Source: an uncultured Bacillales bacterium (GTDB lineage Bacteria > Bacillota_I > Bacilli_A > RFN20 > CAG-826). Taken from it: 64,000 nucleotides of DNA. Under the pieces are notes generated by a model that saw nothing but the letters and a program-made list of their open reading frames with translations, was not told where the DNA came from and searched no databases. Shown here piece by piece: positions 23,219 through 62,042 of this stretch; within the stretch, counting starts at the first letter, position 1; each line of letters begins with the position of its first letter. The stretch is taken from contig CAMOEI010000001.1 of NCBI GenBank assembly GCA_946612115.1, forward strand, positions 130,936 through 194,935, written 5' to 3'. A program made the translations under genes and the position numbers.

Positions 23219-23254
23219 TGTAGATATTTATTATTTTTTTAGTATAATAAATGC

Positions 23255-41694: not shown

Positions 41695-41718
41695 TTTATA
41701 AACAAAGTTTATAATAAA

Positions 41719-41746
41719 TACTAAATTTCTACTAATTTACTACTAC
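41719..41746 (+). repeat. three tandem TACTAA(A/T/C) heptamers with exact 11-bp phasing, upstream of tkt
   Basis: TACTAAA at 41719, TACTAAT at 41730, TACTACa at 41741; 21-48 nt upstream of the tkt start codon. Confidence 0.6.
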
Positions 41747-41766
41747 ACAAAAAGGAGAACAAAGTA

Positions 41767-43740
41767 ATGAAAGAAATTGACAAATTAAGCATCGCAACGA
41801 TCCGTAGCTTATGTATCGACATGATTAATAAGGCTAATTCCGGACACCCAGGAATGGCTCTTGGCAGTGCGCCAATCCTTTATACCTTATTCACTAAGCA
41901 TTTAGTTAGTGACCCTAAGGATCCAGAATGGATTAATAGAGACCGTTTTGTCTTATCTGCAGGACATGCTTCTAGCTTGCTATACACCATGCTCCACTTA
42001 AGTGGATATGAAGTTAGCCTAGATGATTTGAAACAATTTAGGCAAATCGATTCGCTTACTCCAGGACACCCAGAATATCACTGGACAAAAGGCGTCGACG
42101 CTACTAGTGGACCTTTAGGTCAAGGTATAGCTCAAGCAGTTGGTATGGCTTTAGCGGAAGAATCTATCGCTGCCAATTATAACGAAGGCAAGAGAATTAT
42201 GGACCATTACACATATGTTTTATGCGGGGATGGATGTTTACAAGAAGGCTTGTCCCAAGAAGCAATCAGCTTTGCTGGACACCAAAAATTAAACAAATTA
42301 ATTCTTTTCTATGATGCAAATGAAGTCACATTAGATGGCTCACTTGATTTGTCGTTCTCTGAAAATACAAAATTAAGATTTGAGGCTAGTGGATGGAAAG
42401 TCTTAGAAGTTAAAGATGGAAACGATGTTGAAGCAATCGATAAAGCGATTGAAGAAGCAAAGAAATCCAAAGATAAGCCAGTGATGATTTTAGTTCACAC
42501 TGTTATCGGCTATGGTAGTGCAAAACAAGGAACATCTAAAGTTCATGGTTCTCCTTTAGGAGCGGAAGATGGACACCACGCCAAAGTTGATGTTTATGGA
42601 TTTGATCACGAAGATTTCTACGTTCCAGAAGAAGTGAGAAAACATTTCCAAGAAACATTTGTTTCTAGAGGCGAAAAAGCTCACGAAAAATATAATAAAG
42701 ATTTCGAATCATATCGCAAAGACCATAAGGCTGACGCCGAACGTTTCGAATCCTTAAAAGGATTAGATATTTCTAAATATGTTCCAGAAGAAATGCCAGA
42801 TTTCGTTAGTGGAAGCGCAACTAGCACCCGTGTTGCTAGCGGAAAAGCATTAAATGCTTATATGCTCAATGTTCCAATGCTCGTCGGTGGATCTGCTGAC
42901 GTTGCCGGAAGCGTTATGACTAAATTAGATAACGGAGTTAATTTTGCTCCAGGTCATAGAGAAGGCCACAACGTCAACTGGGGAATTAGAGAATTCGCTA
43001 TGGGATGTATGCAAAACGGTATGCTCCTCCACGGTGGAATTCGTAGTTATGTTGGCTGCTTCGCTGTATTCAGCGATTATATGAAACCTGCCATTAGAAT
43101 GGCGGCGTTAAGCCACTTACCAGGTATTTATTTATTCTCTCATGATAGTATCGCTGTTGGAGAAGATGGTCCAACTCATCAACCAATTGAACAATTAGCG
43201 ATGTTAAGAAGCATTCCTAACGTTAACGTTATTCGACCAGCGGACGAAAGAGAAACATTCGCTGCTTGGAAGATTGCTCTTAAGAGCACTAAAACTCCAA
43301 CTGCCTTAATCCTCTCTAGACAAAATCTTCCATTATTAGAAGGAAGTAGTGCTGAAGGAGTTGAAAAAGGTGGATATGTTGTCTCCTACGAAAAGAAGAA
43401 AATCGACTTAGTGTTAATCGCTACTGGTAGTGAAGTTAGTTTAGCAATTGAAGCTCAACAAAAGCTTCTTGAAAAGAAGATTGATGTTAGAGTAGTTTCT
43501 TTACCTTCTTGGGAATTATTTGCTGCTCAAGAACCTTCTTATAGAAAAGAAGTTTTACAATTACCAAGTGAAAGAAGAGTCTCTGTTGAGATGCTTTCAA
43601 CCTTTGGTTGGGGCAAATGGGCTAAATACCATATGGGCTTAGACAATTTCGGTGCAAGCGCTCCAGCAAAAGACGTCATTAAGAAATTTGATTTCACAAG
43701 CGACCATTTAGTGGCAATGTGTGAAGAAATTTTGAAATAA
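41767..43740 (+). CDS. tkt: transketolase
   Basis: TPP-binding motifs (GHPGMALGSAPILYTLF, GDGCLQEG..). 657 aa. RBS AAGGAG. Confidence 0.9.
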   Translation: MKEIDKLSIATIRSLCIDMINKANSGHPGMALGSAPILYTLFTKHLVSDPKDPEWINRDRFVLSAGHASSLLYTMLHLSGYEVSLDDLKQFRQIDSLTPGHPEYHWTKGVDATSGPLGQGIAQAVGMALAEESIAANYNEGKRIMDHYTYVLCGDGCLQEGLSQEAISFAGHQKLNKLILFYDANEVTLDGSLDLSFSENTKLRFEASGWKVLEVKDGNDVEAIDKAIEEAKKSKDKPVMILVHTVIGYGSAKQGTSKVHGSPLGAEDGHHAKVDVYGFDHEDFYVPEEVRKHFQETFVSRGEKAHEKYNKDFESYRKDHKADAERFESLKGLDISKYVPEEMPDFVSGSATSTRVASGKALNAYMLNVPMLVGGSADVAGSVMTKLDNGVNFAPGHREGHNVNWGIREFAMGCMQNGMLLHGGIRSYVGCFAVFSDYMKPAIRMAALSHLPGIYLFSHDSIAVGEDGPTHQPIEQLAMLRSIPNVNVIRPADERETFAAWKIALKSTKTPTALILSRQNLPLLEGSSAEGVEKGGYVVSYEKKKIDLVLIATGSEVSLAIEAQQKLLEKKIDVRVVSLPSWELFAAQEPSYRKEVLQLPSERRVSVEMLSTFGWGKWAKYHMGLDNFGASAPAKDVIKKFDFTSDHLVAMCEEILK

Positions 43741-43747
43741 AGAAATT

Positions 43748-44167
43748 ATGGAATTAACCAGAAACCAAACTCATTACATCATCATGTCCGTTATTTATAA
43801 CGAACTTATCGATTTCAACTTTGGAAGCGATAATTTTGTTCGTGACGCTAGAGAATTAATTTCAAGCTTGGCGGAAAAGCCTTTTGAAGAAGTTGATCCT
43901 TATATCACTAACACAGTTATGACTTCCTTACAAAAATATGGTGAGATCAAAAGCGCTTACGAACCTCATCTTAAAAACTGGAGATGGGAAAGATTGCCTT
44001 TATTAACTCAAGCCATACTCTTAATGAGTTATACTCATTACTATTTCATTGAAAAAGTCGATAAGAGCGTTGTCATTAATATCGCTGTTAACTTAGCAAA
44101 GAAATATATCGATGATAAACAAGCAAAGTTTATTAACGGCATCCTCGATAAAGGAGTTCTTGCTTAA
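43748..44167 (+). CDS. nusB: transcription antitermination factor NusB
   Basis: 139 aa with C-terminal NusB signature VVINIAVNLAKKY...AKFINGILDKG. Confidence 0.7.
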   Translation: MELTRNQTHYIIMSVIYNELIDFNFGSDNFVRDARELISSLAEKPFEEVDPYITNTVMTSLQKYGEIKSAYEPHLKNWRWERLPLLTQAILLMSYTHYYFIEKVDKSVVINIAVNLAKKYIDDKQAKFINGILDKGVLA

Positions 44168-45291
44168 TGTACGAATCTTCGCCAGTTATATCTGTTAGCG
44201 AGGTCAATACTTATATCAAATCCCTTTTAACAACTGATCCTAAACTAAAGTTTATTCGAGTAAAAGGGGAGATAAGTAATTTTAAACTCTACCCAAGTGG
44301 TCACTTATATTTCTCTATTAAAGATGAAACTTCGGTGATCAGTGCGGTGATGTTTGCTAATTACGCTTCTAGATTAGTCTTTAAACCAGAAAATGGAGAC
44401 GAAGTGGTGGTTCTCGCTAGTGTGGACGCCTATGTTCCTAGAGGAAATTACAACTTGCAAGTCTATGAGATGGAGGAAATTGGATTAGGTCAACAGCTAG
44501 TTGAACTAGAAAAATTAAAGAAACAATTAGCAAGCGAAGGATATTTTGATGCTTCAAGAAAAAGAGCGATCAATATCTACCCAAAAGCCATCGGAGTAAT
44601 CACCGCTCCTAATGGAGCAGCGGTTAGAGATATCATCACAAACATTAAAAGAAGATATCCAATTACCGACATTTATGTCTTTCCTAGTCTTGTTCAGGGA
44701 GAACAAGCTCCAAAAGAGTTATTAAAAGCTTTTAAAGTCTCCCAAGAATATCCTCTAGATACCTTAATTATTGGTCGAGGCGGAGGAGCAAGTGAAGACC
44801 TTAGCGCCTTCAACGATGAAACTCTTGTTAGAGCGGTCGCTACTAGTAAATGTCCAATAATTTCTGCAGTAGGACACGAAATCGACAGCACCTTAATCGA
44901 TTTTATTGCCGATAAACGCGCTTCAACCCCCACAGGAGCCGCGGAATTAGCAACGGTGGACATCCGTGAGATCGAGAAAGAATTCGCTTATTCTAGCCTC
45001 TCTATGGAGCAAGCTTTAGCAAATAAGATAAATGAGCGAAAAGAAGAACTAAGCGAATTAAAAGAAGAACTCGATGATTCGTTAAAAGAATTAATTGAGA
45101 ACCAAAAAGAAGAACTTGAGGTTTTAAAAAATAAACTTCACTTATTAAACCCAAAAACAATTTTACAAAGAGGTTATTCGATCTCTTTAGATAAACATGG
45201 CAACGCCATTAAGTCATCAAAATCCCTAAATAGTGGGGATGAGATGAAAACGTTATTCGCTGATGGAGAAGTATCTAGCGTTATCAAATAA
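44167..45291 (+). CDS. xseA: exodeoxyribonuclease VII large subunit
   Basis: N-terminal OB fold, catalytic core, and C-terminal coiled-coil. TAATG coupling to nusB. Confidence 0.85.
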   Translation: MYESSPVISVSEVNTYIKSLLTTDPKLKFIRVKGEISNFKLYPSGHLYFSIKDETSVISAVMFANYASRLVFKPENGDEVVVLASVDAYVPRGNYNLQVYEMEEIGLGQQLVELEKLKKQLASEGYFDASRKRAINIYPKAIGVITAPNGAAVRDIITNIKRRYPITDIYVFPSLVQGEQAPKELLKAFKVSQEYPLDTLIIGRGGGASEDLSAFNDETLVRAVATSKCPIISAVGHEIDSTLIDFIADKRASTPTGAAELATVDIREIEKEFAYSSLSMEQALANKINERKEELSELKEELDDSLKELIENQKEELEVLKNKLHLLNPKTILQRGYSISLDKHGNAIKSSKSLNSGDEMKTLFADGEVSSVIK

Positions 45292-45302
45292 GGAGCAATC
45301 AC

Positions 45303-45500
45303 ATGGAAAAAGAATTTGATTTTGAAAAAGAACTCAACCGATTAAAAGACATCGTTAACAAAATCCAAAATAGTGATGTCTCTTTAGATGAGAGTTTAAA
45401 ACTATACGAAGAAGGCAATAAAATTATTGTCGAGTTAACAGAAGAGCTTAAAAAAGCAGAAGACAAAGTCGAAAAAGTCATTGAGGCTAATAAAAAATAA
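45303..45500 (+). CDS. xseB: exodeoxyribonuclease VII small subunit
   Basis: 65-aa helical protein FEKELNRLKDIVNKIQNSDVSLDESLKLYEEG. Confidence 0.8.
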   Translation: MEKEFDFEKELNRLKDIVNKIQNSDVSLDESLKLYEEGNKIIVELTEELKKAEDKVEKVIEANKK

Positions 45501-47347
45501 TGTCAAAAAAGGAACTTAAAAGAATTGATTTAAAATCAATCCAAAATCCTGATTTCTTGAAAAGCATGAATCACAGGGAGTTGGAGCTTTTAAGTGACGA
45601 CATTAGACATTATATTCTTGAAAGTGTTTCAAAAAATGGTGGGCACTTATCAAGTAACCTCGGAGTAGTTGAAGCAACGATTGCTTTATGCAAAGTCTTT
45701 GACTTCAAAAAAGATAAAATCATCTTTGATGTTGGCCATCAATCCTATACATATAAGATTTTAACCGGAAGAAGTTTGGATAACTTAAGACAAAAAGACG
45801 GTGTTAGCGGTTATCAAAAGATGAGTGAATCTAGTTATGATCACTTTGAAGCCGGGCACTCCTCAACAAGTATTAGCGTCGCTAACGGGATGGCGATTGC
45901 TAGAGACCTCAACAAAGAGAAATATAATATCATCGCCTTTATCGGAGACAGCGCTTTACAAAACGGTTTAGCTTTGGAAGCTTTAAACAATTTAGCACAG
46001 TCTAATCACAAAGTGATTATTGTGGTTAACGATAACGAGATGTCAATCTCTAAACCTGTTGGCGGATTATCTAGCGTGTTTAGAAGATTCTCAACATCAA
46101 GTTTCTATAGAAAAGGTAAATCTGCCGCTAGAAAAATTTTCGGATGGAATAGATTTGGCAGATGGTTATTATCGGGATTTGGCGCTTTTAAAAACTGGTT
46201 CAAAAGAAAAGTAATCAATATGACTTTATTCGATAACCTCGGTTATAGTGTTATCGGACCAATCGATGGGCATTACTTTAGACAGCTTGAAAACGCTTTT
46301 AATCGCGCTAAAAAGATTAATAATTCAGTTGTTGTTCATATCAAAACAGTGAAAGGCAAAGGATATCCTTACGCTGAAGATGATGAGTTAGGTGATTGGC
46401 ATGGAGTTAGTTCCTTTAATATCGATACTGGTGAACTTGCTAGTAAAGATGGAACAGTGTCTTGGAGTGAGCAATATAAGCTTCTTTTAAAGCACGAGAT
46501 GTCAGTTAACGATAAAATCGTTACAATCGTTCCTGCAACTGGACACGGTAGCGCTTTAGATTCTTTATTTGATATCTATCCAAAACGTATGATTGATGTT
46601 GGAATCAGTGAAGAGCACGCCTTTACTTTAGCGGGTGGGCTTGCTGTAAGTGGGTATCACCCAGTGGTCTCCATTTATTCGACTTTCTTACAAAGAAGCT
46701 ACGACGAATTATCTCATGATGTTGCTAGATTAAATTTAGACATGACCATTTTGATCGACCGTGCTGGATTAGTGGGAAGTGATGGAGATACTCATCAAGG
46801 AATCTATGATGAAGCATTTTTATACACCATTCCAAATGTCACGATTACAATGGCTAGTAGAGCTAGTGAAGCTTTATCTTTAATGAAAGAATCTTTATGC
46901 CACCATGGGGTGTTCGCAATTAGATATCCTCGTGAATTCTTTATGAATAAAGAAGATGGCGTTAAAAAGATTCCATACGGAAGTTGGAAAGTTGAATTAG
47001 AGGGAAGTAAGACTGCAATTATTTCTGCTGGTCCATTAACCTTAAAACTCAAATCCAAACTTATTGAACTCAATAAAGATGTAACTTTATTTAATGCGAT
47101 TTATCTTAGACCATTAGATGAATCTAAGCTTTTAAGTTTGCTTGATTATTCAAAGATTATTATTTATAACCCATACGCGACAAAAGAAGGTTTTGCTTCG
47201 GCGGTAAAGAGCTTCTTAATTGATCATAACTATAAAGGCGAAGTTATTACAAAGACCGTCCCAACAACGTTTGTTAAGCACGCCTCAATCGAAGAACAAA
47301 GACAAGAATTTAATCTAACAATCGATGATATCATCGATTCTTTATAA
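45500..47347 (+). CDS. dxs: 1-deoxy-D-xylulose-5-phosphate synthase
   Basis: TPP motifs GHLSSNLG, GDSALQNG. 615 aa with transketolase-like middle and C-terminal domains. ATAATG coupling to xseB. Confidence 0.85.
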   Translation: MSKKELKRIDLKSIQNPDFLKSMNHRELELLSDDIRHYILESVSKNGGHLSSNLGVVEATIALCKVFDFKKDKIIFDVGHQSYTYKILTGRSLDNLRQKDGVSGYQKMSESSYDHFEAGHSSTSISVANGMAIARDLNKEKYNIIAFIGDSALQNGLALEALNNLAQSNHKVIIVVNDNEMSISKPVGGLSSVFRRFSTSSFYRKGKSAARKIFGWNRFGRWLLSGFGAFKNWFKRKVINMTLFDNLGYSVIGPIDGHYFRQLENAFNRAKKINNSVVVHIKTVKGKGYPYAEDDELGDWHGVSSFNIDTGELASKDGTVSWSEQYKLLLKHEMSVNDKIVTIVPATGHGSALDSLFDIYPKRMIDVGISEEHAFTLAGGLAVSGYHPVVSIYSTFLQRSYDELSHDVARLNLDMTILIDRAGLVGSDGDTHQGIYDEAFLYTIPNVTITMASRASEALSLMKESLCHHGVFAIRYPREFFMNKEDGVKKIPYGSWKVELEGSKTAIISAGPLTLKLKSKLIELNKDVTLFNAIYLRPLDESKLLSLLDYSKIIIYNPYATKEGFASAVKSFLIDHNYKGEVITKTVPTTFVKHASIEEQRQEFNLTIDDIIDSL

Positions 47348-47388
47348 TATTAGTTAACATAATATAAGATTGCATTTATAATGTTAAT

Positions 47389-48576
47389 ATGGCAAGAATT
47401 ATTGCGCATATTGACTTAAATGCTTTTTTTGTAAGAGCGGAAGAAATTAGAAATCCTTCCTTAGAAGATAAACCAGTCGCAATCGGTCACTTAGGTCGAG
47501 CGGGGGTCGTTTCAACTTGCTCATATAAAGCTAGAGAATTTGGAGTGAGAAGCGCGATGCCGATGAATAAGGCTGTCGAACTATGTCCAAATTTAATCAT
47601 TCTTCCTGGAGATTATCGCTTTTATAGCACTTTAAGTCACGAATTTAAAAAATATATCCGTCAATTAACTCCTCTAGTGGAATCTGCTTCGGTTGATGAA
47701 CTATATGCAGATTTTACCGACATCATCAAAAAAGGAACAAATGTCGAAGAGTTTTTTAGGCAGATACAATATAACTTATTTAAGAATACCGGCTTAAAAT
47801 GCTCTATTGGAGTCGCCCCAACAAAGTTTTTAGCGAAGATGGGTAGCGATTATAAAAAGCCAATGGGATTGACTATCATCAGAAGAAAAGATGTTCAAAA
47901 GATCATCTGGCCTTTACCTATTGAAGATATGTATGGGATTGGCAAGAAAAGCGCTCCAAGATTAAAAAGAATTGGAATTAACACGATAGGTGATTTAGCA
48001 AAAGCGTTAAACTCCAAAGATGAAAATGTTCTAAACTTACTTGGGAAATTTTCAGAAGAGTTAACCCTTTGGGTTAATGGATATGGAAGTGACAAGATTG
48101 AAACTGAAGCTTGGGATCCTAAATCAATTGGTAATTCCACAACATTAAAAGAAGACACGAATAGATTTGAAACCATCAAAGATACTTTTTATATGCTCGC
48201 TAGTGAAGTTAGTGAAAGAGCGAAAAAAGAAGGAAAGATTGGTTCAACTATTCAAATAATGGCTAAAGATACAGACTATAAAGCTCATAACAAATCGATT
48301 ACTTTAGTAAATAAAACTAATAGCGAAAAAGATATTTATGACGCAGCGATAAAACTCTACGAAAAGAATTTCTTAGATCTAACCGTTAGAGCGGTTGGAG
48401 TGTGCCTACAAAACCTCATCGATATTAAAGAGATGAAAGTGCAGATGACTTTCTACGATTATCAAAAGCATGAAGAGGAAAGCAAAACCAAATTACTAAT
48501 AAACGATTTGAACCGTAAGATTAAAGGTTCACCTTTAAAAAGGGCTAGCGAGGTGAAAAAAGATGGAACTAACTGA
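47389..48576 (+). CDS. dinB: DNA polymerase IV (Y-family)
   Basis: IAHIDLNAFF, SIDE-like catalytic residues, HhH, little-finger domain. Confidence 0.85.
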   Translation: MARIIAHIDLNAFFVRAEEIRNPSLEDKPVAIGHLGRAGVVSTCSYKAREFGVRSAMPMNKAVELCPNLIILPGDYRFYSTLSHEFKKYIRQLTPLVESASVDELYADFTDIIKKGTNVEEFFRQIQYNLFKNTGLKCSIGVAPTKFLAKMGSDYKKPMGLTIIRRKDVQKIIWPLPIEDMYGIGKKSAPRLKRIGINTIGDLAKALNSKDENVLNLLGKFSEELTLWVNGYGSDKIETEAWDPKSIGNSTTLKEDTNRFETIKDTFYMLASEVSERAKKEGKIGSTIQIMAKDTDYKAHNKSITLVNKTNSEKDIYDAAIKLYEKNFLDLTVRAVGVCLQNLIDIKEMKVQMTFYDYQKHEEESKTKLLINDLNRKIKGSPLKRASEVKKDGTN

Positions 48577-49444
48577 TGCATTAAGCAATTACATCCAATA
48601 TCTCCTCGTTGAAAAGGGTCTTTCAAAGAAAACAATTGAAGCCTATCGAGATGACTTATTGAAGTTTTTTGATTTCTTCCCAGAAAAAAGAAAAGTGGAA
48701 GATTTGAAATCTGAAGATATCCTAATTTTCTTCGGAAATGAAATGAATGAAGGGAAAAATATTTCGACCTCATTAAGAAGATTATCTTCCCTAAAAAATT
48801 TCTATCTCTTTCTAAAGAAAGAAGGCTTATTTTTAGATGAGCTTCCTGAGATTGAACCAGTTAAAAAGCCGTCTCATTTGCCAACTTGCTTAAGCGTTGA
48901 AGAAGTTGAAGCTTTATTAGACGCTCCTAATCTAAAAACACCTAGCGGGATAAGAGATAAAGCAATGCTTGAACTAATGTACGCAAGTGGGTTACGTGTT
49001 AGCGAACTAGTCGGATTAGAAAAAAGTAATGTCAATCTCAAAAAAGGAATTGTCACCATCTTTGGAAAAGGGGCGAAGGAAAGAAAAGTTCCAATGGGGG
49101 ATTTCGCCAGTGAATATGTTGTTAAATATATCAACTCTGCTAGAAACAAATTTCACGGGGAAAAATCAAAATATTTATTCTTAAATAAACAAGGTAAACC
49201 AATCAGTAGAATTTATTTCTTTAAACAAATAAGAAAATACGCAAAAGATGCTGGGATAGAAAAAGATATTTCCCCACACACTTTAAGACACTGCTTCGCT
49301 ACTCATATGTTAGAGGGCGGGGCGAATCTTAGAACTGTACAAGAAATGCTAGGTCACACCAACATTGCCACAACGCAAATTTATACCCATGTTTCTAGTC
49401 GTAGAATTATCAATGCGTATGATTTGTTTATGAACAAAAAATGA
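48563..49444 (+). CDS. xerD: tyrosine recombinase XerC/XerD family
   Basis: N-terminal core-binding domain (TIEAYRDDL), catalytic R..HxxR..Y (HTLRHCFATHML..TQIYTHV). Confidence 0.75.
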   Translation: MELTDALSNYIQYLLVEKGLSKKTIEAYRDDLLKFFDFFPEKRKVEDLKSEDILIFFGNEMNEGKNISTSLRRLSSLKNFYLFLKKEGLFLDELPEIEPVKKPSHLPTCLSVEEVEALLDAPNLKTPSGIRDKAMLELMYASGLRVSELVGLEKSNVNLKKGIVTIFGKGAKERKVPMGDFASEYVVKYINSARNKFHGEKSKYLFLNKQGKPISRIYFFKQIRKYAKDAGIEKDISPHTLRHCFATHMLEGGANLRTVQEMLGHTNIATTQIYTHVSSRRIINAYDLFMNKK

Positions 49445-49477
49445 TTTACAATATAGGTAACTGAAAGGAAATATATT

Positions 49478-50695: not shown

Positions 50696-50702
50696 GAAAA
50701 TA

Positions 50703-50728
50703 AGTGTCTAGGAAACTAGGCACTTTTA
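50703..50728. terminator. bidirectional terminator between convergent deoB and ABC permease genes
   Basis: agtgtctag-gaaa-ctaggcact hairpin flanked by A/T runs. Confidence 0.55.
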
Positions 50729-52417: not shown

Positions 52418-52464
52418 AGTTTTTTTACCTCGTTGTTATTTTACATAAATAACTATATAATAAG

Positions 52465-52480
52465 TGTGATTTAAATCACG
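52465..52480. promoter_or_regulatory. CRP/FNR-type operator TGTGA-N6-TCACg in the divergent SBP / crp-like intergenic region
   Basis: TGTGATTTAAATCACG matches the TGTGA-N6-TCACA consensus in 9 of 10 arm positions. It overlaps a TATAAT -10 box (52456-52461) and ends 4 nt before the Crp/Fnr gene ATG. About 48-63 nt upstream of the SBP start on the opposite strand. Confidence 0.55.
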
Positions 52481-52483
52481 CAT

Positions 52484-53083
52484 ATGGAAAATATTCTCTT
52501 ATCCTTATCAAAAGAAGAACTTAAAAGTCTCAAAATAGTGGAACTCCATAAAGGAACAACTCTATTTTTAGAAGGTGACGAGTGTAAAAATGTCGGAATA
52601 GTTAAATCTGGTGAGTTGATAATTAAGTCATTTTTAAAAAGTGGAAAAGAGATTACATATAATGTAATAGAACCTGGTTCAATGTTTGGCAATAATTTAA
52701 TTTTCTCTTCGACGCCTAAATATCGAGGAGACGTTGTTGCCGAAAAAGATTCAGAAATATATCTTTTGAGCAAAGAAACATTGTTAGGACTGTTATCAAA
52801 AAATCAAAAATTCCTTTTAGCGTATCTGAATTATCAATCAGATTTTTCTAAGTCGCTCAATTTACAGATCAAATTATTGAGTTTAGACTCCGCAGAAGAC
52901 AGATTTGAATATTATCTTACATTTAATAAAAATATAATTAGATATAAAAGCATCTCTGAATTAGCTAGAAGATTGTTTTTATCTAGAGAAACATTAAGTA
53001 GATTAATTAGTCAGATGAGCAAAAATAAAGTTATTCATATTAAAGATAAAACAATCACGCTCATGGTGGATAAACAAAATTAG
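52484..53083 (+). CDS. Crp/Fnr family transcriptional regulator
   Basis: N-terminal cNMP-binding beta-roll (LFLEGDECKNVGIVKSGEL) and C-terminal HTH (SISELARRLFLSRETLSRLISQM). Confidence 0.8.
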   Translation: MENILLSLSKEELKSLKIVELHKGTTLFLEGDECKNVGIVKSGELIIKSFLKSGKEITYNVIEPGSMFGNNLIFSSTPKYRGDVVAEKDSEIYLLSKETLLGLLSKNQKFLLAYLNYQSDFSKSLNLQIKLLSLDSAEDRFEYYLTFNKNIIRYKSISELARRLFLSRETLSRLISQMSKNKVIHIKDKTITLMVDKQN

Positions 53084-53097
53084 TAGATAATTAGTAG
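53080..53097 (-). repeat. two TTAGTAG (reverse complement CTACTAA) heptamers phased 11 bp at the Crp/Fnr gene stop
   Basis: TTAGTAG at 53080 and at 53091. Related to the TACTAAT arrays elsewhere in the window. Confidence 0.4.
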
Positions 53098-53107
53098 GTG
53101 GAAAATT

Positions 53108-53140
53108 CCAGGGAATGTGGAAAATTTCCCTGGTTTTTAT
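53108..53140 (+). terminator. rho-independent terminator after Crp/Fnr gene
   Basis: ccagggaa-tgtggaaaat-ttccctgg followed by tttttatttg. Confidence 0.65.
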
Positions 53141-53263
53141 TTGTGTGAATATGTCCAAATACTTAAAATTATATTGTTTTCTATTTCCTTATACTTTGTA
53201 TACTTTTACTTTTAGTTAACATAATGGTAATTATGCGAAGTTATTATATTTGAGATAAAGAAA

Positions 53264-53293
53264 GGATGTGAATTGCCCACATCCATTCTTTTT
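53264..53293. terminator. terminator hairpin downstream of nadD/yqeK (readable on both strands)
   Basis: ggatgtg-aattgcc-cacatcc followed by attcttttt on +; preceded by a T-rich stretch on the - strand. Confidence 0.5.
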
Positions 53294-53313
53294 AGCCAAT
53301 TACGCTTTCGCTT

Positions 53314-54408: not shown

Positions 54409-54702
54409 TTATTTCTTAAGTTTGATTTTTGGATTTTCTTTATTCCTACGGAATAAAATGATGACTCTTCCCACCATGCTGACAACTTCAGCATTCAACT
54501 TACTAGATAAATCTAAAGTTAACTCCATAATTGGAGTGGTCGCCGATTTTAAAACCTCCACTCTAATGAGTTCTCTAGCAGTAAGTGCTTTATCTAATAC
54601 ATCAATAAGGGCGTTGGTGACTTCACTTTTACCGACTTGATATTTTGTTTTATCAGTAGCAATAATCGCTCTTAATTGAGCTTTTTCGGATTTACTAAGC
54701 AT
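54409..54702 (-). CDS. yhbY: RNA-binding CRS1/YhbY (YqeI) domain protein
   Basis: 97 aa. KSEKAQLRAI...VGKSEVTNAL..ARELIRVEVL is the YhbY fold. Confidence 0.8.
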   Translation of the reverse strand: MLSKSEKAQLRAIIATDKTKYQVGKSEVTNALIDVLDKALTARELIRVEVLKSATTPIMELTLDLSSKLNAEVVSMVGRVIILFRRNKENPKIKLKK

Positions 54703-54703
54703 T

Positions 54704-55840
54704 TTATCTCACCTTAGATAAACATTCCTTCACGGCTACGCCTTTAGGGAGAAGGATCCTGATCTTTTGTCCTCTTCCTCTTAAAGAGAACCATCCTAAA
54801 CCTTCAACAGCAATATCATGTCTTAAATCATCGCTTTCAAGGTCGTATTCAAACATATCGTAGTCTCTAAAGGAGACAAAACGATCACTTGCAGGTTTTA
54901 AGTTCTTTCTTTTTCTAATGCTTTCAAGCATATCGTCAACTTTTTCAATTGAAGTTACTTTTAATTCAGCCTTTTCTGAGGTGAAACAACGCACAGATGT
55001 GTATTTGCCTTTCACGAGGTAGAAACAAGCAAGGTTGCCAACTAAAATTGCGCTTCCACCGGCGATAAATTTTCTGGTCATGTTCACTTCTTTTTTAGGA
55101 GTGATAACAGATTGAACTGATTTTTCAACCTTAGAAAGAACACTCGTGGAATCGCTTAAGTCCGGTAATTCATAGAAGAAACTAGAATTGGAAAGAGGAA
55201 TTTCTAATACATTAGAAGCTGTTCCTGGATATAATTCAGTTTTAATTTGCCATTTGGTTTTATTGACATAGTTCTTAAGTAAGCGATTGATAAATGTGGT
55301 TTTACCACTATTTAAATCACCGATAAGGTAGACATCTCTGCCTCTTCTTTCTTCATTAATCTTTTTAAGATTACTGTTGATGTCTTCATTGTCATTATTA
55401 CCAATTAAGCGAATGCTAATTGGGTTAATTCCAACTTCTGAGAATCTCTCATCGAGATATCTGATGAGCATTTCATCAGTGACATTTGAAGGGAATAAGT
55501 CTCTTTTAGAACCAAGGACAACAATGTCTAATTTCTTAATTTTCTTTGCGACATCAGGGTTTAATGTGCCATTAAATGAGAATAAATCAACAATCCAGAC
55601 GATAAGAGCATCTGTCGCAACAGCGTCTTTTAAGATTTTGAGGATATCTTTATCGGTTTCATGATCAAGATTTGAACCATTAAGCTCAAGCATCTTTTCA
55701 TAACATGAGTTACAGTATGGGATTTTTGGAACACCATTTTCAACGATGTTACGCGAAATAAAACCAGGAAGTTTCTTACTATCTGTTTGTAAGATAGCTC
55801 CACAGTTATGACATCTAAGAACTCTTTTTGCCACTGCCAT
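54704..55840 (-). CDS. yqeH: ribosome biogenesis GTPase YqeH (circularly permuted GTPase with N-terminal zinc ribbon)
   Basis: Start trimmed to MAVAKRVLRCHNCGAIL (Cys4 zinc finger), with GGAGG 10 nt upstream; the ORF track extends it to 55948, overlapping yqeG. G4-G1-G3 permuted order (LGSKRDL ... GDLNSGKTTFIN). Confidence 0.8.
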   Translation of the reverse strand: MAVAKRVLRCHNCGAILQTDSKKLPGFISRNIVENGVPKIPYCNSCYEKMLELNGSNLDHETDKDILKILKDAVATDALIVWIVDLFSFNGTLNPDVAKKIKKLDIVVLGSKRDLFPSNVTDEMLIRYLDERFSEVGINPISIRLIGNNDNEDINSNLKKINEERRGRDVYLIGDLNSGKTTFINRLLKNYVNKTKWQIKTELYPGTASNVLEIPLSNSSFFYELPDLSDSTSVLSKVEKSVQSVITPKKEVNMTRKFIAGGSAILVGNLACFYLVKGKYTSVRCFTSEKAELKVTSIEKVDDMLESIRKRKNLKPASDRFVSFRDYDMFEYDLESDDLRHDIAVEGLGWFSLRGRGQKIRILLPKGVAVKECLSKVR

Positions 55841-55841
55841 A

Positions 55842-56363
55842 TTATTTGTTCCTCCAATCCACGAGATTGCCTCTTTTTTTGTGATATTTTCTAATCGGTC
55901 TATCAAATAGACGATTAAAGTGTGTAGTAATTTGGTCTTCTTTAACAATCTTTTCTGTAAGAACGACCTTAATATTTGCTCCTCTGCCCGCCAATACGTC
56001 CGTCATCATCTGATCGCCGACGAGCATGACTTCGTTAGGATCGAGATTACGTTTAGACATCTCGGCTTTGATTCTCCTAGAAAATGGTTTTCTAGCCGAT
56101 GCTAAGAATTCGATACCGAGTTCATTAGCATAACCGCTAACACGGTTAGGGCGGTTGTTTGAGATAATAATTGGCTTAATCCCGTTTTCAATCAAACCTT
56201 TAACATAGTTAATTGTTCTTTCTTGAGGATGTTTGGCTTTAAACGAATCAAGCGTGTTATCTAGATCCATAAAAAGCGTCTTGATTCCATTCCTTTTGTA
56301 GAAATCGTATTCAATTTCGTAAATTGAAGCCGAATGTGCAAATGGAATGAATTTTTTAAACAT
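55842..56363 (-). CDS. yqeG: YqeG-family HAD phosphatase
   Basis: HAD motif I FMDLDNTL, motif III/IV (VGDQMMTDV). 173 aa. Confidence 0.8.
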   Translation of the reverse strand: MFKKFIPFAHSASIYEIEYDFYKRNGIKTLFMDLDNTLDSFKAKHPQERTINYVKGLIENGIKPIIISNNRPNRVSGYANELGIEFLASARKPFSRRIKAEMSKRNLDPNEVMLVGDQMMTDVLAGRGANIKVVLTEKIVKEDQITTHFNRLFDRPIRKYHKKRGNLVDWRNK

Positions 56364-56471
56364 ATTAAACCTAATATTGATTGTAAACGAAAAAGTCCTA
56401 TTTTAATAGACTTTTAATTAAAAACATCACTTTAATTTTCTTATATAAAGAAAAAAGTAGTCAATTATTTA

Positions 56472-56500
56472 TACTAATTAACTACTAATTTTCTACTAAT
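56472..56500 (+). repeat. three perfect TACTAAT heptamers with exact 11-bp phasing
   Basis: TACTAAT at 56472, 56483 and 56494, in the AT-rich gap between the parC stop (56527) and the yqeG start (56363). Confidence 0.65.
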
Positions 56501-56526
56501 AAAATCTTATAATATAATTAATTATA

Positions 56527-59169
56527 TTAGTCGTCTAGATCATCAAAGATTGAGATCTGTTCGAAGGTTGTTTCTTCCTTTTTTTCTGGTTTATTTTCAA
56601 TCTTGATTTCTTCAGCTTCTTCGGTCTCATTTTCCGCTATCTCTTCATCTAATGGTTTAGCTGTTTCTTTGACTAAAATTGGATGTGAGATATTGTCCTT
56701 ACCAATATTTTCGATATTGGTGTCAAAAGCAAAGGAGATTGATTGTTTTGCTAATACCTCATCAATGTTCTTCTTGGCGTATTGAGCTTCTGTATTCTTT
56801 AAATCATCGAGAACCAAAGTCTTTGTAGTACGGTCATTAAGATAAAGATTTATCTTAAGAGGTTCATCTTTATAAACCTTTAATACAGAGATAATGTTGT
56901 GTGGCTCACCTTTGAAACATTGTAAGATAGTTTGCGGTTTACCTAATCTATTCGTGCGTGTGAATTTATTAATATCAGTTACACGCATATGCGCTTTATT
57001 TGTCAAAAGAACAATTTTATTGTTCTTATCTTCCTCGTCGAAAGATAATAGACCTGCTAAGTAGGCATTACCTAATCCAGAGAAGGATTTAACTCCACCG
57101 GCTTTGCTTCCTAAAACAGTAAGCTCGTTTTCGTTGAATAATGAACATCTACCATTATTAGTTACAACTAATAAATCACTGTTTCCGGAGATTAATCTAA
57201 TTCCAACAATCGAATCTCTAGATAAGAGTTTCATGTATTTGACTGGACGAGAATGTTTAGATAAATCAAGCGAAGAAACCGCCATTCTCTTAATTTGACC
57301 AAACTTGGTCAAGATAGCGAGATATAAATCATCACGTTTTTCGCTTAAAGACATAACCTTGATGATTTTTTCTCCACTAGCTAATGTTGTAAATTCATTA
57401 ACGTGGCTCCCTTCATCTTTCCATTTAGTGTCTGTCAATTTATGAACAGGGATGGTCAAATAGTTTCCTTGATTTGTAAAACAAATCAAATAATCGGTTG
57501 TCATCGCTTTGCCGATTCCAACTAACATATCCCCATCTTTTAAGCCTGGTAGATCACCATTACTAGAAGAATAGCTTCTAATTGAGCTACGTTTCAAATA
57601 ACCATCATAACTAACAGAAACCATAACTTCTTCTTTGGCGATAAGCTCACGCTTATCAATTTCTTTAGTTTCGCCCTTTTCAATTATTTGAGTTCTTCTT
57701 TCGTCCCCATATTTTTCTGCAACAGCTTTTAAATCTTTGATTAAAACTCTATTGAGTTTTGCAGGATCTTCAAGAATTCCAGTTAAGGTTTCGATTTCTT
57801 TACTTAATTGTTTCTTTTCAGCTTCTAAAGTTAACTCATCAGTGTGGCTTAACTTATATAAAGGCATGGTCACAATTGCTTCAGCTTGTTCGTTAGATAA
57901 ACCGTATTTAGCAATTAAGTTGACCTTACTATCGGCCTTGTCTTTACTCTTTTTAATGATCTCGACAACCTCGTTGATGTTAAGGCTTGCTAAGATTAAT
58001 CCTTCAACGATATGAAGTCTATCTTGGCACTTCTTTAAATCATATTTACTCTTGCGAGTAACAACATCAACTTGGTGAGCAATATAAGCATCAACATAGT
58101 CGAGTAAATTTAATGTTCTAGGACGTCCATCAACAATCGCCACCATGTTTGCGGTATATCCACAGACAAGGTTCGTCTTCTTCATTAAATATTGTAAAAT
58201 CAAGTCCGCTTTCGCGTTCTTTTTAACGTCTATAACGATTCTGATTCCCTTGTAATCAGATTCATCTCTAACTTCAATAATTCCATCAATCGCTTTAGAG
58301 TGACGAATCTTATCAATTTCGAAAACTAATTGAATTTTCACCACTTTATAAGGAATTTCTGTGATGATAATTTGATTGCAATCTTTTTGTTCGACAATTT
58401 CAGTTTTGCCTGCAACTTCAATTCTTCCTCTTCCAGTTAAATAGATTGATTTGAGTCCTTCAGACTCATAAATAAATCCACCGCCTGGAAAATCAGGACC
58501 TTTAACAAATTCCATGAGCTCTTCACAAGTTGCAGTCTTGTGTCCAATACGATAAACAACGGCATCAATAACCTCCTTGAGGTTATGTGGTGGAATTTCA
58601 GTCGCTAAAGCAACCGCAATACCTTCAGTTCCGTTAACGAGTAAATTTGGGAATCTAGAAGGCAAAACAACTGGTTCGAATTCTGTATCATCGAAGTTAA
58701 GCTGCATATCTACAGTGTCTTTTTCGATATCTCTTACTAATTCGTTAGAAAGCTCACTTAATCTACTTTCAGTATAACGATAAGCTGCTGGAGAATCTCC
58801 ATCGATCGAACCATTATTACCTTGGAAGTCAATTAATGGGGCTCTCACTTTCCAATCTTGGCTCATTCTGGCTAACGCTTCATAAATTGAAGTATCGCCA
58901 TGTGGGTGATAAGTACCCATAACAGCACCAACTGTGTGAGCACATTTTTTTGTTGGTTTGTTAAAAGTGTTTCCACTTTTATACATTGAGAAAATAATAC
59001 GTCTTTGAACTGGTTTTAATCCATCTCTAACATCTGGGATAGCACGATCTTGGATGACATATTTAGCATAAGTTGCATATCTATCACCCATGACATCTTC
59101 AAGGGTTTCAACCGAAATATTCTCTTCGAATAAATCTTCTTGGACAGGAACTTCTTTTTTTCTTGCCAT
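56527..59169 (-). CDS. parC: type II topoisomerase A subunit; assigned topoisomerase IV ParC (GyrA not excluded)
   Basis: Catalytic Tyr region (..AAYRYTE), WHD/tower domains, beta-pinwheel C-terminal domain, acidic tail. Adjacent to a B subunit and divergent plsY, as in B. subtilis plsY-parE-parC. Confidence 0.7.
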   Translation of the reverse strand: MARKKEVPVQEDLFEENISVETLEDVMGDRYATYAKYVIQDRAIPDVRDGLKPVQRRIIFSMYKSGNTFNKPTKKCAHTVGAVMGTYHPHGDTSIYEALARMSQDWKVRAPLIDFQGNNGSIDGDSPAAYRYTESRLSELSNELVRDIEKDTVDMQLNFDDTEFEPVVLPSRFPNLLVNGTEGIAVALATEIPPHNLKEVIDAVVYRIGHKTATCEELMEFVKGPDFPGGGFIYESEGLKSIYLTGRGRIEVAGKTEIVEQKDCNQIIITEIPYKVVKIQLVFEIDKIRHSKAIDGIIEVRDESDYKGIRIVIDVKKNAKADLILQYLMKKTNLVCGYTANMVAIVDGRPRTLNLLDYVDAYIAHQVDVVTRKSKYDLKKCQDRLHIVEGLILASLNINEVVEIIKKSKDKADSKVNLIAKYGLSNEQAEAIVTMPLYKLSHTDELTLEAEKKQLSKEIETLTGILEDPAKLNRVLIKDLKAVAEKYGDERRTQIIEKGETKEIDKRELIAKEEVMVSVSYDGYLKRSSIRSYSSSNGDLPGLKDGDMLVGIGKAMTTDYLICFTNQGNYLTIPVHKLTDTKWKDEGSHVNEFTTLASGEKIIKVMSLSEKRDDLYLAILTKFGQIKRMAVSSLDLSKHSRPVKYMKLLSRDSIVGIRLISGNSDLLVVTNNGRCSLFNENELTVLGSKAGGVKSFSGLGNAYLAGLLSFDEEDKNNKIVLLTNKAHMRVTDINKFTRTNRLGKPQTILQCFKGEPHNIISVLKVYKDEPLKINLYLNDRTTKTLVLDDLKNTEAQYAKKNIDEVLAKQSISFAFDTNIENIGKDNISHPILVKETAKPLDEEIAENETEEAEEIKIENKPEKKEETTFEQISIFDDLDD

Positions 59170-59171
59170 AA

Positions 59172-61106
59172 TTATTTGACCTCCTTGATAAATGTATCGA
59201 CTTTATTAAAGTCGACATTCTCTTCAACCCACTGTTTTCTTAAACTTGCATCTCTACCCATGAGGATATTAACACGCTTTTCAACGAGGAATGGATCATT
59301 GATATCAACTTGAATGAGGAGTCTAGTTCTTGGGTCCATAGTTGTTTCTTTAAGTTGAATAGCATCCATTTCACCAAGACCTTTATAACGGTTAATTTTA
59401 TATCCGGCACCGACCTTCTTTTTCGCAGCTTCAAGTTGAGCGTCATCCCAAGCGTATTCTTGGATTAATTGACGATTCACTTCTTTAAAAACACGATATA
59501 AAGGTGGGACAGCGATATAAATATGACCGCTTGTTATAAGCTGCCTCATATAGTGATAGAAGAATGTCAGCAAAAGAGTTTGAATATGAGCACCATCGGT
59601 ATCAGCATCAGTCATGATGATGATTTTGCCATAATGGATATCTTCAATATCAAAACTCTGTCCAAAACCTGCACCAACTGTGTTAATAATTGTTGCGATT
59701 TCTTCGTTGTGCAATAATTTTTCCATTGAAATAGAATCTGTATTAAGCGGTTTACCACGTAGTGGTAAGATTGCTTGATGGATTCTATCTCTTCCTTTTT
59801 TTGCAGTTCCTCCAGCGGAATCACCCTCGACGATAAAGAGCTCGTTTTTAAGGTAGTCTTTAGATTGAGCAGGAGTGAGTTTATCAGAAAGAATTACTTC
59901 TTGTTTGGCTTTTTTAGAACTTCTTGCTTCATCTTTCGCTTTTCTTGCAGCAAGTCTTGCTTGCTGGCTATCAACACACTTCTTAATGATATTGATCGCG
60001 TTTTCTTTATTTTCAGTAAGATAATAAGTAAACTTATTATAAATTAAATTAGAAACAACTTGATAGGCTGCTGGAGTACCTAATTTTCCTTTGGTTTGAC
60101 CTTCAAATTCCAATAATTCTTCAGGGACTTTTAAGGAAACAATTGCAGTTAATCCTTCACGAATATCACTGCCTTCAAGTTTCTTTCCTTTGAGTAAATT
60201 TGCCATTTCGGCAAAATCGTTGACCGCTCTAGTGATACCAGCTCTAAATCCAGATTCGTGTGTACCACCATCACCGGTTTTAACATTGTTAACGTAAGAA
60301 TATACAACTTCGTTGTAATCTTCGTAGCAATATTGAATTGCAATTTCAGTTTCAATATTGGTAATTGGATCAATTTCAGAAAAACTTACCACATCGATGA
60401 TTGGTTTTTTCTCGGCGTTGAGGAGATTAATATACTCCACCAAGCCTTTTTCGTAATAATATTCTTGTTTTTGACCGGTCTTTTCATCAACAATGATGAA
60501 ACGAACTCCTTTCATCAAAAACGCAGATTCTTGCAAGTGAGAGGAAATAGTATCAAATTTAAAATCGACGGTTGAGAAAATTGCAGGATCAGGGAGGAAT
60601 CTAACAAGTGTTCCATGCTTTTTGGTGTCTCCAATTCTTTCAAGAGGAGTAACCATGTGACCTCCGTTTTCAAAGCGTAAATGATAAATACCACCGTTTC
60701 TATAAACGGTGACATCGCACATTAAACTTAAAGCATTGGTTACCGAAGCACCAACACCATGGAGTCCACCAGCACTTTTATAGACAGAGGAATTAAACTT
60801 ACCACCAGCGTGTAATTCTGTGAAAACAATTTCCACACCAGGGCGTCCAGTTTCCTTATTAATGTCAACTGGAATACCTCTACCTTCATCTAAAACAGAG
60901 CAACTTCCATCCTTATGAAGAGTGACGATAATTTGACTTCCGAATCCACTTAAAGCTTCATCGACAGCGTTATCGACAACTTCCCAAACAAGGTGATGGA
61001 GACCACTTGAATTTGTGCTTCCGATATACATTGCAGGTCTTTTACGAACACCTTCAAGGCCTTGCAAAATGTGAATATCATTTGCAGTATATTGTCTCTC
61101 CGCCAT
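59172..61106 (-). CDS. parE: type II topoisomerase B subunit; assigned ParE (GyrB not excluded)
   Basis: GHKL ATPase (..HLVWEVVDNAVDEAL.., GLHGVGASV), transducer, TOPRIM (EGDSAGG), PLYRGK-like C-terminal motif. 644 aa. Confidence 0.7.
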   Translation of the reverse strand: MAERQYTANDIHILQGLEGVRKRPAMYIGSTNSSGLHHLVWEVVDNAVDEALSGFGSQIIVTLHKDGSCSVLDEGRGIPVDINKETGRPGVEIVFTELHAGGKFNSSVYKSAGGLHGVGASVTNALSLMCDVTVYRNGGIYHLRFENGGHMVTPLERIGDTKKHGTLVRFLPDPAIFSTVDFKFDTISSHLQESAFLMKGVRFIIVDEKTGQKQEYYYEKGLVEYINLLNAEKKPIIDVVSFSEIDPITNIETEIAIQYCYEDYNEVVYSYVNNVKTGDGGTHESGFRAGITRAVNDFAEMANLLKGKKLEGSDIREGLTAIVSLKVPEELLEFEGQTKGKLGTPAAYQVVSNLIYNKFTYYLTENKENAINIIKKCVDSQQARLAARKAKDEARSSKKAKQEVILSDKLTPAQSKDYLKNELFIVEGDSAGGTAKKGRDRIHQAILPLRGKPLNTDSISMEKLLHNEEIATIINTVGAGFGQSFDIEDIHYGKIIIMTDADTDGAHIQTLLLTFFYHYMRQLITSGHIYIAVPPLYRVFKEVNRQLIQEYAWDDAQLEAAKKKVGAGYKINRYKGLGEMDAIQLKETTMDPRTRLLIQVDINDPFLVEKRVNILMGRDASLRKQWVEENVDFNKVDTFIKEVK

Positions 61107-61191
61107 ACTATACCTCCTTTGCTGAGGACAATTATAAACGGAAAATATTGAAAATATAAAGCAATTTAGTAGAATAGATAAAGGTCAAAAA

Positions 61192-61953
61192 ATGGATATT
61201 ATTTTATATAATATAGGTCTTGCAATTTTAATAACAATCATCGGATATTTCTTTGGCGCAATCCCAAATGGTATTTGGATTGGAAAACTATTTTTTAAGA
61301 AAGATCCTCGTGATTATGGAAGCAAAAACAGCGGTGCGACCAATGTTGGCAGAGTTTTTGGCAAAAAAGTAGGTGCAATTTGCATCCTGTTAGACGCAAT
61401 CAAGGTAATCATTCCGATTTACTTAGTTTGGTTGTTTATGATTAAAGTGCCGATGTATAACAATTTACCTTTAATGGCAGATATCCAGACCAAATACACA
61501 GTTGGTGATGCAAATTACCTAGTTAGATGGCCGATGTATTGGCTAGTCATTTTAGGCGCAAGTATTGGTCACTGCTATCCAATTTATGAACAATTTAAAG
61601 GAGGAAAAAACGTTTCAACGTTTTATGGCTCTTTATTAGGTTCAACTTGGCTATTAGGATTACCGACCGTTGCATTTTTCGTTATTATCTTAAAGCTCAA
61701 AAAATACGTCTCATTATCAAGCATTCTTAGCTCTTGGTTTGGAACTATATTAGCGTGGATTTGGGCAATTTTATCTCTTACAGTAATCCCTGTCGAATAC
61801 ATTAGTCTAGCAACTTATGGCGTTTGTCTAGACTGCAATTATATCTTCGCAATTGTCATCACTTTATCGGCGATGATTTTAACCTTAAGGCACTCACAGA
61901 ACATCCAAAGAATCAAAGCCGGAACCGAAAGCAAGATTAAATGGATGAAATAA
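61192..61953 (+). CDS. plsY: glycerol-3-phosphate acyltransferase PlsY
   Basis: SKNSGATNVGR motif. 5-6 TM. 253 aa. Confidence 0.8.
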   Translation: MDIILYNIGLAILITIIGYFFGAIPNGIWIGKLFFKKDPRDYGSKNSGATNVGRVFGKKVGAICILLDAIKVIIPIYLVWLFMIKVPMYNNLPLMADIQTKYTVGDANYLVRWPMYWLVILGASIGHCYPIYEQFKGGKNVSTFYGSLLGSTWLLGLPTVAFFVIILKLKKYVSLSSILSSWFGTILAWIWAILSLTVIPVEYISLATYGVCLDCNYIFAIVITLSAMILTLRHSQNIQRIKAGTESKIKWMK

Positions 61954-61956
61954 TCG

Positions 61957-61985
61957 ATTAGTATTAAATTAGTAATTATTTAGTA
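61957..61985 (-). repeat. three ATTAGTA/TTTAGTA heptamers (reverse complement TACTAAT/TACTAAA) with exact 11-bp phasing immediately after the plsY stop
   Basis: ATTAGTA at 61957 and 61968, TTTAGTA at 61979. Confidence 0.6.
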
Positions 61986-62005: not shown

Positions 62006-62042
62006 AGGTTTTCCACAATATGACGAAAACCTATTTTTATTA
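62006..62042 (+). terminator. rho-independent terminator of plsY
   Basis: aggttttc-cacaatatgac-gaaaacct followed by atttttatta. Confidence 0.65.

Follow-up and report, generated by a model that had tools for sequence, protein, structure and literature searches.

Phased ATTAGTA arrays conserved around the putative dif site in an uncultured lineage of gut and rumen Bacilli, with a possible terminus-linked role

Why should one heptamer recur, at exact 11-bp intervals, in several gaps between genes of a single chromosomal region? The question is raised by a 64,000-nt stretch of DNA from an uncultured Bacillales bacterium (GenBank assembly GCA_946612115.1, contig CAMOEI010000001.1, positions 130,936 to 194,935), here called the window. 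It belongs to a 381-kb metagenomic contig with a guanine-plus-cytosine (GC) content of 35%, and its proteins match only metagenome-assembled genomes (MAGs) of uncultured 'Bacilli' or 'Erysipelotrichaceae'. A sequence-only reading had claimed four phased arrays of TACTAAT, or its reverse complement ATTAGTA, in this window; the sequence and a mismatch scan confirmed all four, and the Pfam lists bore out the gene contexts given for them. The arrays are real, are conserved across an uncultured lineage of gut and rumen Bacilli and are concentrated around dif. We propose, at a probability of about one half, that they are DNA-binding arrays with a terminus-linked polar role.

The array between aspS and tkt (41719..41747, plus strand) reads TACTAAA-TTTC-TACTAAT-TTAC-TACTACA, three units with three mismatches, lies between the aspS stop codon and the tkt Shine–Dalgarno sequence, and is the sole array of the window that reads against its flanking genes. 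The array beside dif lies on the minus strand at 53079..53096, one position off the coordinates previously given (53080-53097), and consists of two exact units, ATTAGTA-GATA-ATTAGTA on the plus strand; unit 1 supplies, with its TAG (53081-53083), the stop codon of a Crp-like gene. Between parC and yqeG, three exact units occupy 56472..56500 on the plus strand, so that ATTAGTA stands on the minus strand, the sense strand of parC, beginning 26 nt past the parC stop codon. The plsY array (61957..61985, minus strand) reads ATTAGTA, ATTAGTA and TTTAGTA on the plus strand, three units with one mismatch, and begins 3 nt past the plsY stop codon, upstream of the plsY terminator. The units are head-to-tail direct repeats with a strict 7+4 architecture, and the 11-bp repeat aligns all heptamers along one helix face.

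The single heptamer is not enriched in the window (17 copies versus 14.4 expected), and its copies outside arrays to the left of dif number five on the plus and three on the minus strand; a single motif of the type of the FtsK-orienting polar sequences (KOPS) was rejected on these counts. The signal lies in the phasing. Six pairs of heptamers with at most one mismatch occur at a period of 11, and the other periods from 7 to 24 give none or one each, except period 22, twice 11, which gives two. In 300 dinucleotide-preserving shuffles of the window, the mean number of such period-11 pairs was 0.087 (maximum 2), and phased triples, of which the window holds three, averaged 0.013. The period scan and the shuffles thus rule out chance and AT-richness as explanations.

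Related loci, all from MAGs or metagenomic contigs and numbered here with the prefix L, were fetched through homology to PlsY, Tkt and FtsA, independently of the motif. The plsY 3′ array was present with all PlsY homologues (81, 64, 55 and 46% identity), three of which also had an array between glyQS and dnaG; the aspS–tkt and dif-adjacent arrays were present with all Tkt homologues (79–85% identity), and an array upstream of ftsA was kept with FtsA homologues (61–94% identity). In these homology-chosen loci, pairwise identity was 88.7% in heptamers, 58.0% in spacers and 45.7% in flanks, which from the aligned sequences is read as a phylogenetic footprint on the heptamers and their spacing; orthologous sites are not independent observations. 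A consensus from 38 non-identical arrays, A-ATTAGTA-K-W-W, is constrained at 9 of 11 positions and avoids C. The earlier view that the arrays have the look of iterated binding sites holds insofar as they are non-random, keep their heptamers while the spacers drift and present them on one helix face.

At about 51–53 kb of the window, the cumulative GC skew reaches its peak and the orientation of the genes flips; in most genomes, dif is the precise point of the flip in GC skew. At the switch lies a 28-bp XerC/XerD site on the minus strand (53214..53241; ACTTCGCATAA-TTACCA-TTATGTTAACT, as a whole ACTTCGCATAATTACCATTATGTTAACT), which has three mismatches to the dif consensus, and whose XerD arm is identical to that of Bacillus subtilis dif at 10 of 11 bases. 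The site is kept in all related loci that cover the region (L302–L308, L310, L194, L035 and L048), and it was assigned as dif from similarity, position and conservation. Because of the change in skew sign and this dif-like site, the window is taken to span the replication terminus. A gene for a XerD-like recombinase lies at 48563-49444. Furthermore, a lone exact dif XerD arm (TTATGTTAACT), with no XerC arm, is found at 47352-47362 in the dxs–dinB spacer, and solo XerD arms of a similar kind occur in L304 and L194; they recall the XerD-only sites at which SMC is unloaded in B. subtilis.

The arrays had been placed at unrelated intergenic sites, a description that failed: all four lie within 12 kb of dif and are members of about eight conserved positions around it. 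In window coordinates, these are the aspS–tkt site at 41.7 kb (same place and orientation in L084, exactly, and in L305, L306 and L307 with 2–4 mismatches), the xseB–dxs site at 45.5 kb (L123, L305, L306), the dxs–dinB site at 47.4 kb (L035, L106, L147, L181), the last gene before dif at 50.7 or 53.1 kb, the parC–yqeG site at 56.5 kb (orthologous arrays in L118, L194, L302 and L310, degenerate in L303), the plsY 3′ site at 62.0 kb (after plsY in L301–L304, L028, L054, L117, L118 and L201, lost in L310), a site inside ispH at about 66.4 kb, and the glyQS–dnaG site at about 72 kb, seen in L308, which is of the same species as the window. Relative to dif, the arrays stand at −11.5, −7.7, −5.8, −2.5, −0.1, +3.3, +8.7, +13 and +19 kb. 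The mismatch scan found no array in the window from 0 to 41 kb, that is, from −53 to −11.5 kb of dif. In a scan of 185,579 species genomes for exact triples, the matches listed included at least 15 loci in low-GC gut and rumen Bacilli MAGs with exactly three heptamers and variable AT-rich spacers, as in the window, and 13 of 15 such loci among the matches listed map to dif-region synteny. In the sampled sequence, the enrichment around dif is strong, at least five-fold.

The array next to dif has the closest tie to it. In 10 of 10 genomes, an array of two or three units reads toward dif from 104–125 bp away on the XerD-arm side, and it is kept whether the preceding gene is Crp-like, PemK-like or deoB. 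The Crp-like protein was rejected as the binder, as its gene is absent beside dif in L304, L306, L310, L035 and L048, where the array is kept. The gene directly before dif differs among relatives (a Crp-like regulator, a PemK-like protein or none; window 52484-53083, L304 1527-2069, L306 19532-20092, L310 164-796), which suggests a hotspot of gene turnover beside dif.

Two arrays adjoin 9-mers that resemble DnaA boxes. One, TGTGGAAAA (53116..53124, minus strand; reverse complement TTTTCCACA, one mismatch from TTATCCACA), is placed 19 nt past the dif-adjacent array, and the TGTGGA within TGTGGAWAA is invariant in a seven-species alignment of that array. The other, TTTTCCACA (62009..62017, plus strand), lies 23 nt past the plsY array in a conserved block, TGTGAAT..TTTTCCACA, which has the same offset in L301 and L302; L118 carries a perfect TTATCCACA there. 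TTWTCCACA 9-mers are thus conserved 19–23 nt from the arrays at both convergent sites, near the terminus and not at an origin; a perfect TTATCCACA occurs in several relatives, and DnaA-box-like 9-mers were also seen in L303, L304, L048 and L118. These 9-mers are separate from the arrays, whose heptamer is not a DnaA box and whose period is 11 rather than the 3 of DnaA trios, and the suggestion of a DnaA-like iteron was therefore abandoned.

Considering these results, we propose the following scenario. The arrays would form a family of cis-elements of two or three A-ATTAGTA-K-W-W units, one every 11 bp, on which an oligomeric, sequence-specific DNA-binding protein may dock; since the units are direct repeats, the protein–DNA complex would be polar. 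Its role may be linked to the terminus and sensitive to orientation, as the majority of arrays run in the direction of local transcription and toward dif. Candidate functions are to guide or brake a DNA-tracking machine, such as an FtsK/SpoIIIE-type translocase, the replisome or SMC, or to help Xer action at dif. Seven of the nine conserved sites point toward dif, a proportion that gene-orientation bias alone would likewise give; the exceptions, aspS–tkt and plsY, point away from it. In order, the arrows run left, then right four times, and beyond dif left, right, left and left.

This geometry bears on whether the arrays are polar replication-fork barriers that form a fork trap like Tus–Ter or RTP–Ter. 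Arrays flank dif, which lies at the skew switch, direct repeats have an inherent polarity, the innermost pair (−0.1 and +3.3 kb) converges on dif, and seven of the nine sites point toward it. However, transcription runs through the arrays, there is no RTP- or Tus-like gene nearby, and no RTP or Tus Pfam family was found among the genes called in the approximately 40-kb region of 10 genomes. The Ter of B. subtilis RTP contains TACYAAAT, and identity with it was rejected, as the likeness is superficial, the half-sites of RTP are different and the rtp gene is absent. The mixed polarity excludes a strict fork trap: in either polarity, the aspS–tkt and plsY arrays would stop each fork 9–11 kb before dif and leave the interval unreplicated. 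We regard fork barriers as a very improbable explanation.

The arrays stand at gene ends, a placement that, together with the orientation bias, the hairpin described below and the link to dif, had no part in the sequence-only reading. In the ATTAGTA orientation, the upstream neighbour is usually on the same strand and ends −8 to +35 nt from the array, and at about 12 of 14 independent sites ATTAGTA is on the sense strand of the gene ending alongside. Stop codons lie most often at −5 from the array, in which case the TAG of unit 1 serves as the stop, as at crp, at glyQS, at plsY in L028 and L054, in L048 and in L164; distances of −16 and −27 do not occur. At plsY and crp, an intrinsic terminator follows the array; at parC and upstream of ftsA, the array itself provides the 5′ arm of the terminator, and the species differ there by compensatory changes. 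The parC terminator (56450..56486, minus strand) takes its 5′ arm from units 2 and 3 of the array, 56475-56486 pairing with 56456-56467 ahead of a U-run, and compensatory differences between the window and L302 keep its stem.

A hairpin accompanies several arrays. A perfect stem of 6–8 bp with a 3-nt loop begins exactly 4 nt past unit 3, in the position of a fourth unit, at four independent sites: aspS–tkt, glyQS–dnaG, where it overlaps the dnaG ATG, ispH and the parC locus of L194. In the window, it is TTATAAAC-AAA-GTTTATAA (41696..41714), 4 nt from the aspS–tkt array and in fourth-unit register. The arms covary between species at aspS–tkt (TATAAAC/GTTTATA, TATATAC/GTATATA), and TATAAC/GTTATA, TATAAT/ATTATA and AGTATCAT/ATGATACT are further covarying pairs. 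A palindrome, TAATATAAT-TA-ATTATATTA (56510..56529), lies between the parC stop codon and the array, and palindromes of the type ATATAAC-N3-GTTATAT occupy the same parC position in L118, L302 and L303. Of 15 copies of ATAAC-N3-GTTAT or ATAAAC-N3-GTTTAT in 409 kb, 13 adjoin arrays.

Placement and hairpin together bring in the main rival, transcript-level punctuation, in which AUUAGUA repeats and the hairpin would act in mRNA at gene ends or between cistrons, either as the site of an RNA-binding protein that aids termination or as a signal for processing or stability, such as cleavage by an endonuclease ahead of a protective hairpin. The sense bias, the peak at −5 with shared TAG stops, the position of arrays between stop codon and intrinsic terminator or as the terminator 5′ arm (parC and upstream of ftsA), and a partner hairpin that covaries as a base-paired structure would are all expected under it, and phage-like contigs likewise place arrays after gene ends and before terminators. 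However, the aspS–tkt array is antisense to transcription in five species, so that the mRNA there would carry UACUAAU, and the glyQS–dnaG and aspS–tkt hairpins have no U-tracts. Nor would a transcript signal explain why eight or nine targets should lie no more than 30 kb from dif, or why an array should track dif at about 110 bp whatever the preceding gene. Searches of Rfam 15 at the gathering threshold returned no match to the arrays in the window. Elsewhere in the window, the Rfam matches were ordinary, a T-box leader and a ribosomal protein L21 leader (23251-23435 and 27123-27198). We consider a transcript role unlikely, and if the arrays did act in RNA, they would represent a new signal at gene ends or between cistrons, strong enough to be kept up within a coding sequence through rare codons and paired synonymous changes.

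That coding sequence is ispH, in which a module of array and hairpin lies antisense (peptide VSLYDTKLLINYQ.ITD; L302 15172-15228, L303 15093-15149, L301 7170-7226, L308 7227-7283 and L039 6333-6389). It is encoded with two rare CTA leucine codons (6.8% of leucine codons), and paired synonymous changes, TCA to TCG with TAT to TAC, preserve its hairpin. The antisense array at aspS–tkt, the ispH module and an array that follows dif whatever the neighbouring gene argue for DNA rather than RNA as what would be recognised.

The hairpin also raises the case for an origin-like or mobile-element-derived module, such as a rolling-circle double-strand origin, transposon ends or a repetitive extragenic palindromic (REP)-like element. 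Origins of the pMV158 family have three 11-bp direct repeats beside a hairpin, a layout that arrays with their hairpin resemble; a like hairpin (ATAAAC-TTT-GTTTAT) stands beside arrays at two different loci, aspS–tkt of the window and parC of L194, and phage-like contigs carry arrays. Such an origin is nevertheless highly doubtful, as no Rep, relaxase or transposase gene is associated, orthologous sites persist in housekeeping gaps across deep divergence, and 3-nt loops are too small for known nick sites. In BLAST searches, matches to 72,556 plasmids and 50,697 phages reached E-values no better than about 1, hence no similarity to annotated elements. The partition-like iteron once suggested thus found no plasmid or phage counterpart, and beside the arrays stand housekeeping genes instead of the Rep or Par gene of a theta or rolling-circle origin or a partition centromere.

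Many arrays end 1–100 nt upstream of a start codon, and this feature suits an ordinary transcription-factor operator, for example of OmpR/PhoB type, serving tkt, dxs, dinB, the yqeG operon, dnaG–sigA and ftsAZ. OmpR/PhoB-type Pho-box sites consist of 7-bp direct repeats with 4-bp AT-rich spacers, which the 7+4 architecture matches, and several of the downstream genes act in DNA replication, repair or cell division. Against this, the two most deeply conserved sites, plsY 3′ and dif-adjacent, lie in convergent gaps with no downstream gene, the units number three (two beside dif) rather than an even count of half-sites, the array lies 1–5 nt from the ATG at dxs and dinB with no room for a promoter, and one module is inside ispH. 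An operator is thus quite improbable, and a classical regulon role is less likely than a terminus-linked one. The response-regulator array once suggested is unlikely for the same reason of convergent, promoter-less gaps, and because of the odd unit number and unrelated housekeeping neighbours.

Simpler readings of the motif were also set aside. A sigma-70 promoter with TTAGTA of unit 1 as −35, TAGTAn of unit 3 as −10 and a 17-bp spacer was rejected, as conservation falls on positions other than those critical to a promoter, and G follows the heptamer as often as T does. The apparent −10 element after the glyQS–dnaG array, TATAAT or TATAAC, is the 5′ arm of the covarying hairpin. As a six-frame stop-codon cassette, the repeat does put TAG, and TAA on the other strand, in every frame (11 mod 3 = 2), but this cannot explain why 7–9 specific bases are conserved; stop-codon use is ordinary (TAA 44, TAG 8, TGA 5). 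A near-consensus promoter, TTAACA-17-TATAAT, lies at 47354-47388 of the window and ends 6 nt before the dinB ATG, which has no Shine–Dalgarno sequence; the dinB mRNA may be leaderless. In relatives, the dnaG, dxs and dinB starts beside arrays likewise lack a Shine–Dalgarno sequence.

Several points weigh against a terminus-linked DNA-binding role. In the Pfam lists, no RTP, Tus or other obvious binder domain appears in the region. RNA polymerase crosses arrays both ways, against them from aspS into tkt and along them from glyQS into dnaG and from xseB into dxs, so that a tightly bound protein would often be displaced. The sense bias, stop-codon sharing and following terminators suit a transcript role equally well. 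Furthermore, arrays also occur away from dif, upstream of ftsA, between lspA and rluD and 3′ of groEL and spo0A, and phage-like contigs have them after gene ends; the clustering is thus an enrichment, not exclusivity. The genome and metagenome scans, finally, needed exact triples, and the sequence consists of contigs and MAGs.

The terminus-linked reading would go further if the arrays belonged to a new terminus system, in which a possibly trimeric oligomer would bind the three heptamers and the in-register hairpin, and the polar complexes would load, steer or brake a DNA-tracking machine or license XerCD. This fuller scheme is tentative and, taken whole, rather unlikely. Independently of it, the arrays give a testable handle on the end of replication, dimer resolution or terminus transcription in a lineage without Tus, RTP and MatP; for most bacteria, no fork trap or terminus organiser is known.

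Other 11-bp-phased repeats surfaced in the scans. Among the matches listed from the genome scan, the second kind, besides the Bacilli arrays, consisted of true tandem repeats in Bacteroidales. These 11-mers, TACTAATCAC[AC] in 3–9 copies, are a phenomenon different from the arrays; they occur in many Bacteroidales/Paludibacteraceae MAG loci within L002–L121 (e.g. L009, L026 and L093) and are often preceded by other units of 11-bp period, such as TATCCACTCGG/TATCCTCCCGT. The metagenome and viral pattern scans returned, among the matches listed, mostly unrelated perfect tandem repeats. Human-gut contigs carry a recurrent, near-identical element, GTACATTAGTACATTATTAGTACACTATTAGTAC...ATTAGTAC (L130, L160, L161, L165, L179, L198 and L203), which is a separate 11-bp-phased repeat family and is also found on viral contigs of 130–165 kb (L248, L256, L258, L263, L276 and L298). 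A literature string search on the heptamer gave nothing informative.

Each known system shares some features with the arrays. Like iteron-plus-hairpin origins (the pMV158 bind locus and the origins of circular Rep-encoding single-stranded DNA (CRESS) viruses), the arrays combine three 11-bp direct repeats with a hairpin in fixed register; unlike them, they have no Rep gene, occupy many conserved chromosomal housekeeping positions and show no sequence similarity. Short direct repeats with 10–11-bp spacing, three in MraZ boxes and several in OmpR/PhoB operators, also make up these sites, bound by oligomers on one DNA face, whereas the arrays are not at the promoters of a coherent regulon. MraZ boxes themselves were rejected, as the lineage's own are three copies of AAAGTGG at period 10, directly upstream of mraZ (L046 4095-4130, minus strand).

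Xer accessory sequences (cer with ArgR–PepA and psi with ArcA–PepA) resemble the dif-adjacent array, itself a putative protein-binding element on one flank of an Xer core, about 100 bp away, and ArcA uses direct repeats 11 bp apart. In contrast to cer and psi, the dif here is chromosomal, the element is on the XerD side, and the same arrays also lie kilobases from any Xer core. Like the matS sites of MatP, the arrays are related sequences that are enriched near the terminus; matS, however, is a palindrome of 13 bp whose copies span hundreds of kilobases, whereas the arrays are direct repeats within about 30 kb. Like KOPS and the SpoIIIE recognition sequences (SRS), which orient FtsK and SpoIIIE, the arrays are polar; on both arms most of them point toward dif, as gene-orientation bias alone would also produce. 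An array on the XerD side would, as a loading site, suit the activation of Xer by a translocase, and the three array units echo the three gamma domains that bind one KOPS. KOPS are, however, single G-rich 7–8-mers, abundant and strand-skewed chromosome-wide, whereas the heptamer on its own shows neither enrichment nor skew here, and only rare phased arrays are found.

With Tus–Ter of Escherichia coli and RTP–Ter of B. subtilis, the arrays have in common that they are short, polar and present on both sides of the terminus and dif. They differ in their mixed polarity, which does not form two uniform opposed groups, as aspS–tkt and plsY oppose their group, and in having three phased heptamers in transcribed gaps instead of a single Ter site of 21–30 bp. 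Only two unrelated groups are known to have fork traps (PMC10331603), so that a third, convergent system is conceivable. If the new terminus system tentatively outlined above proved true, it would stand as a third kind of bacterial terminus system beside Tus/RTP–Ter and MatP–matS.

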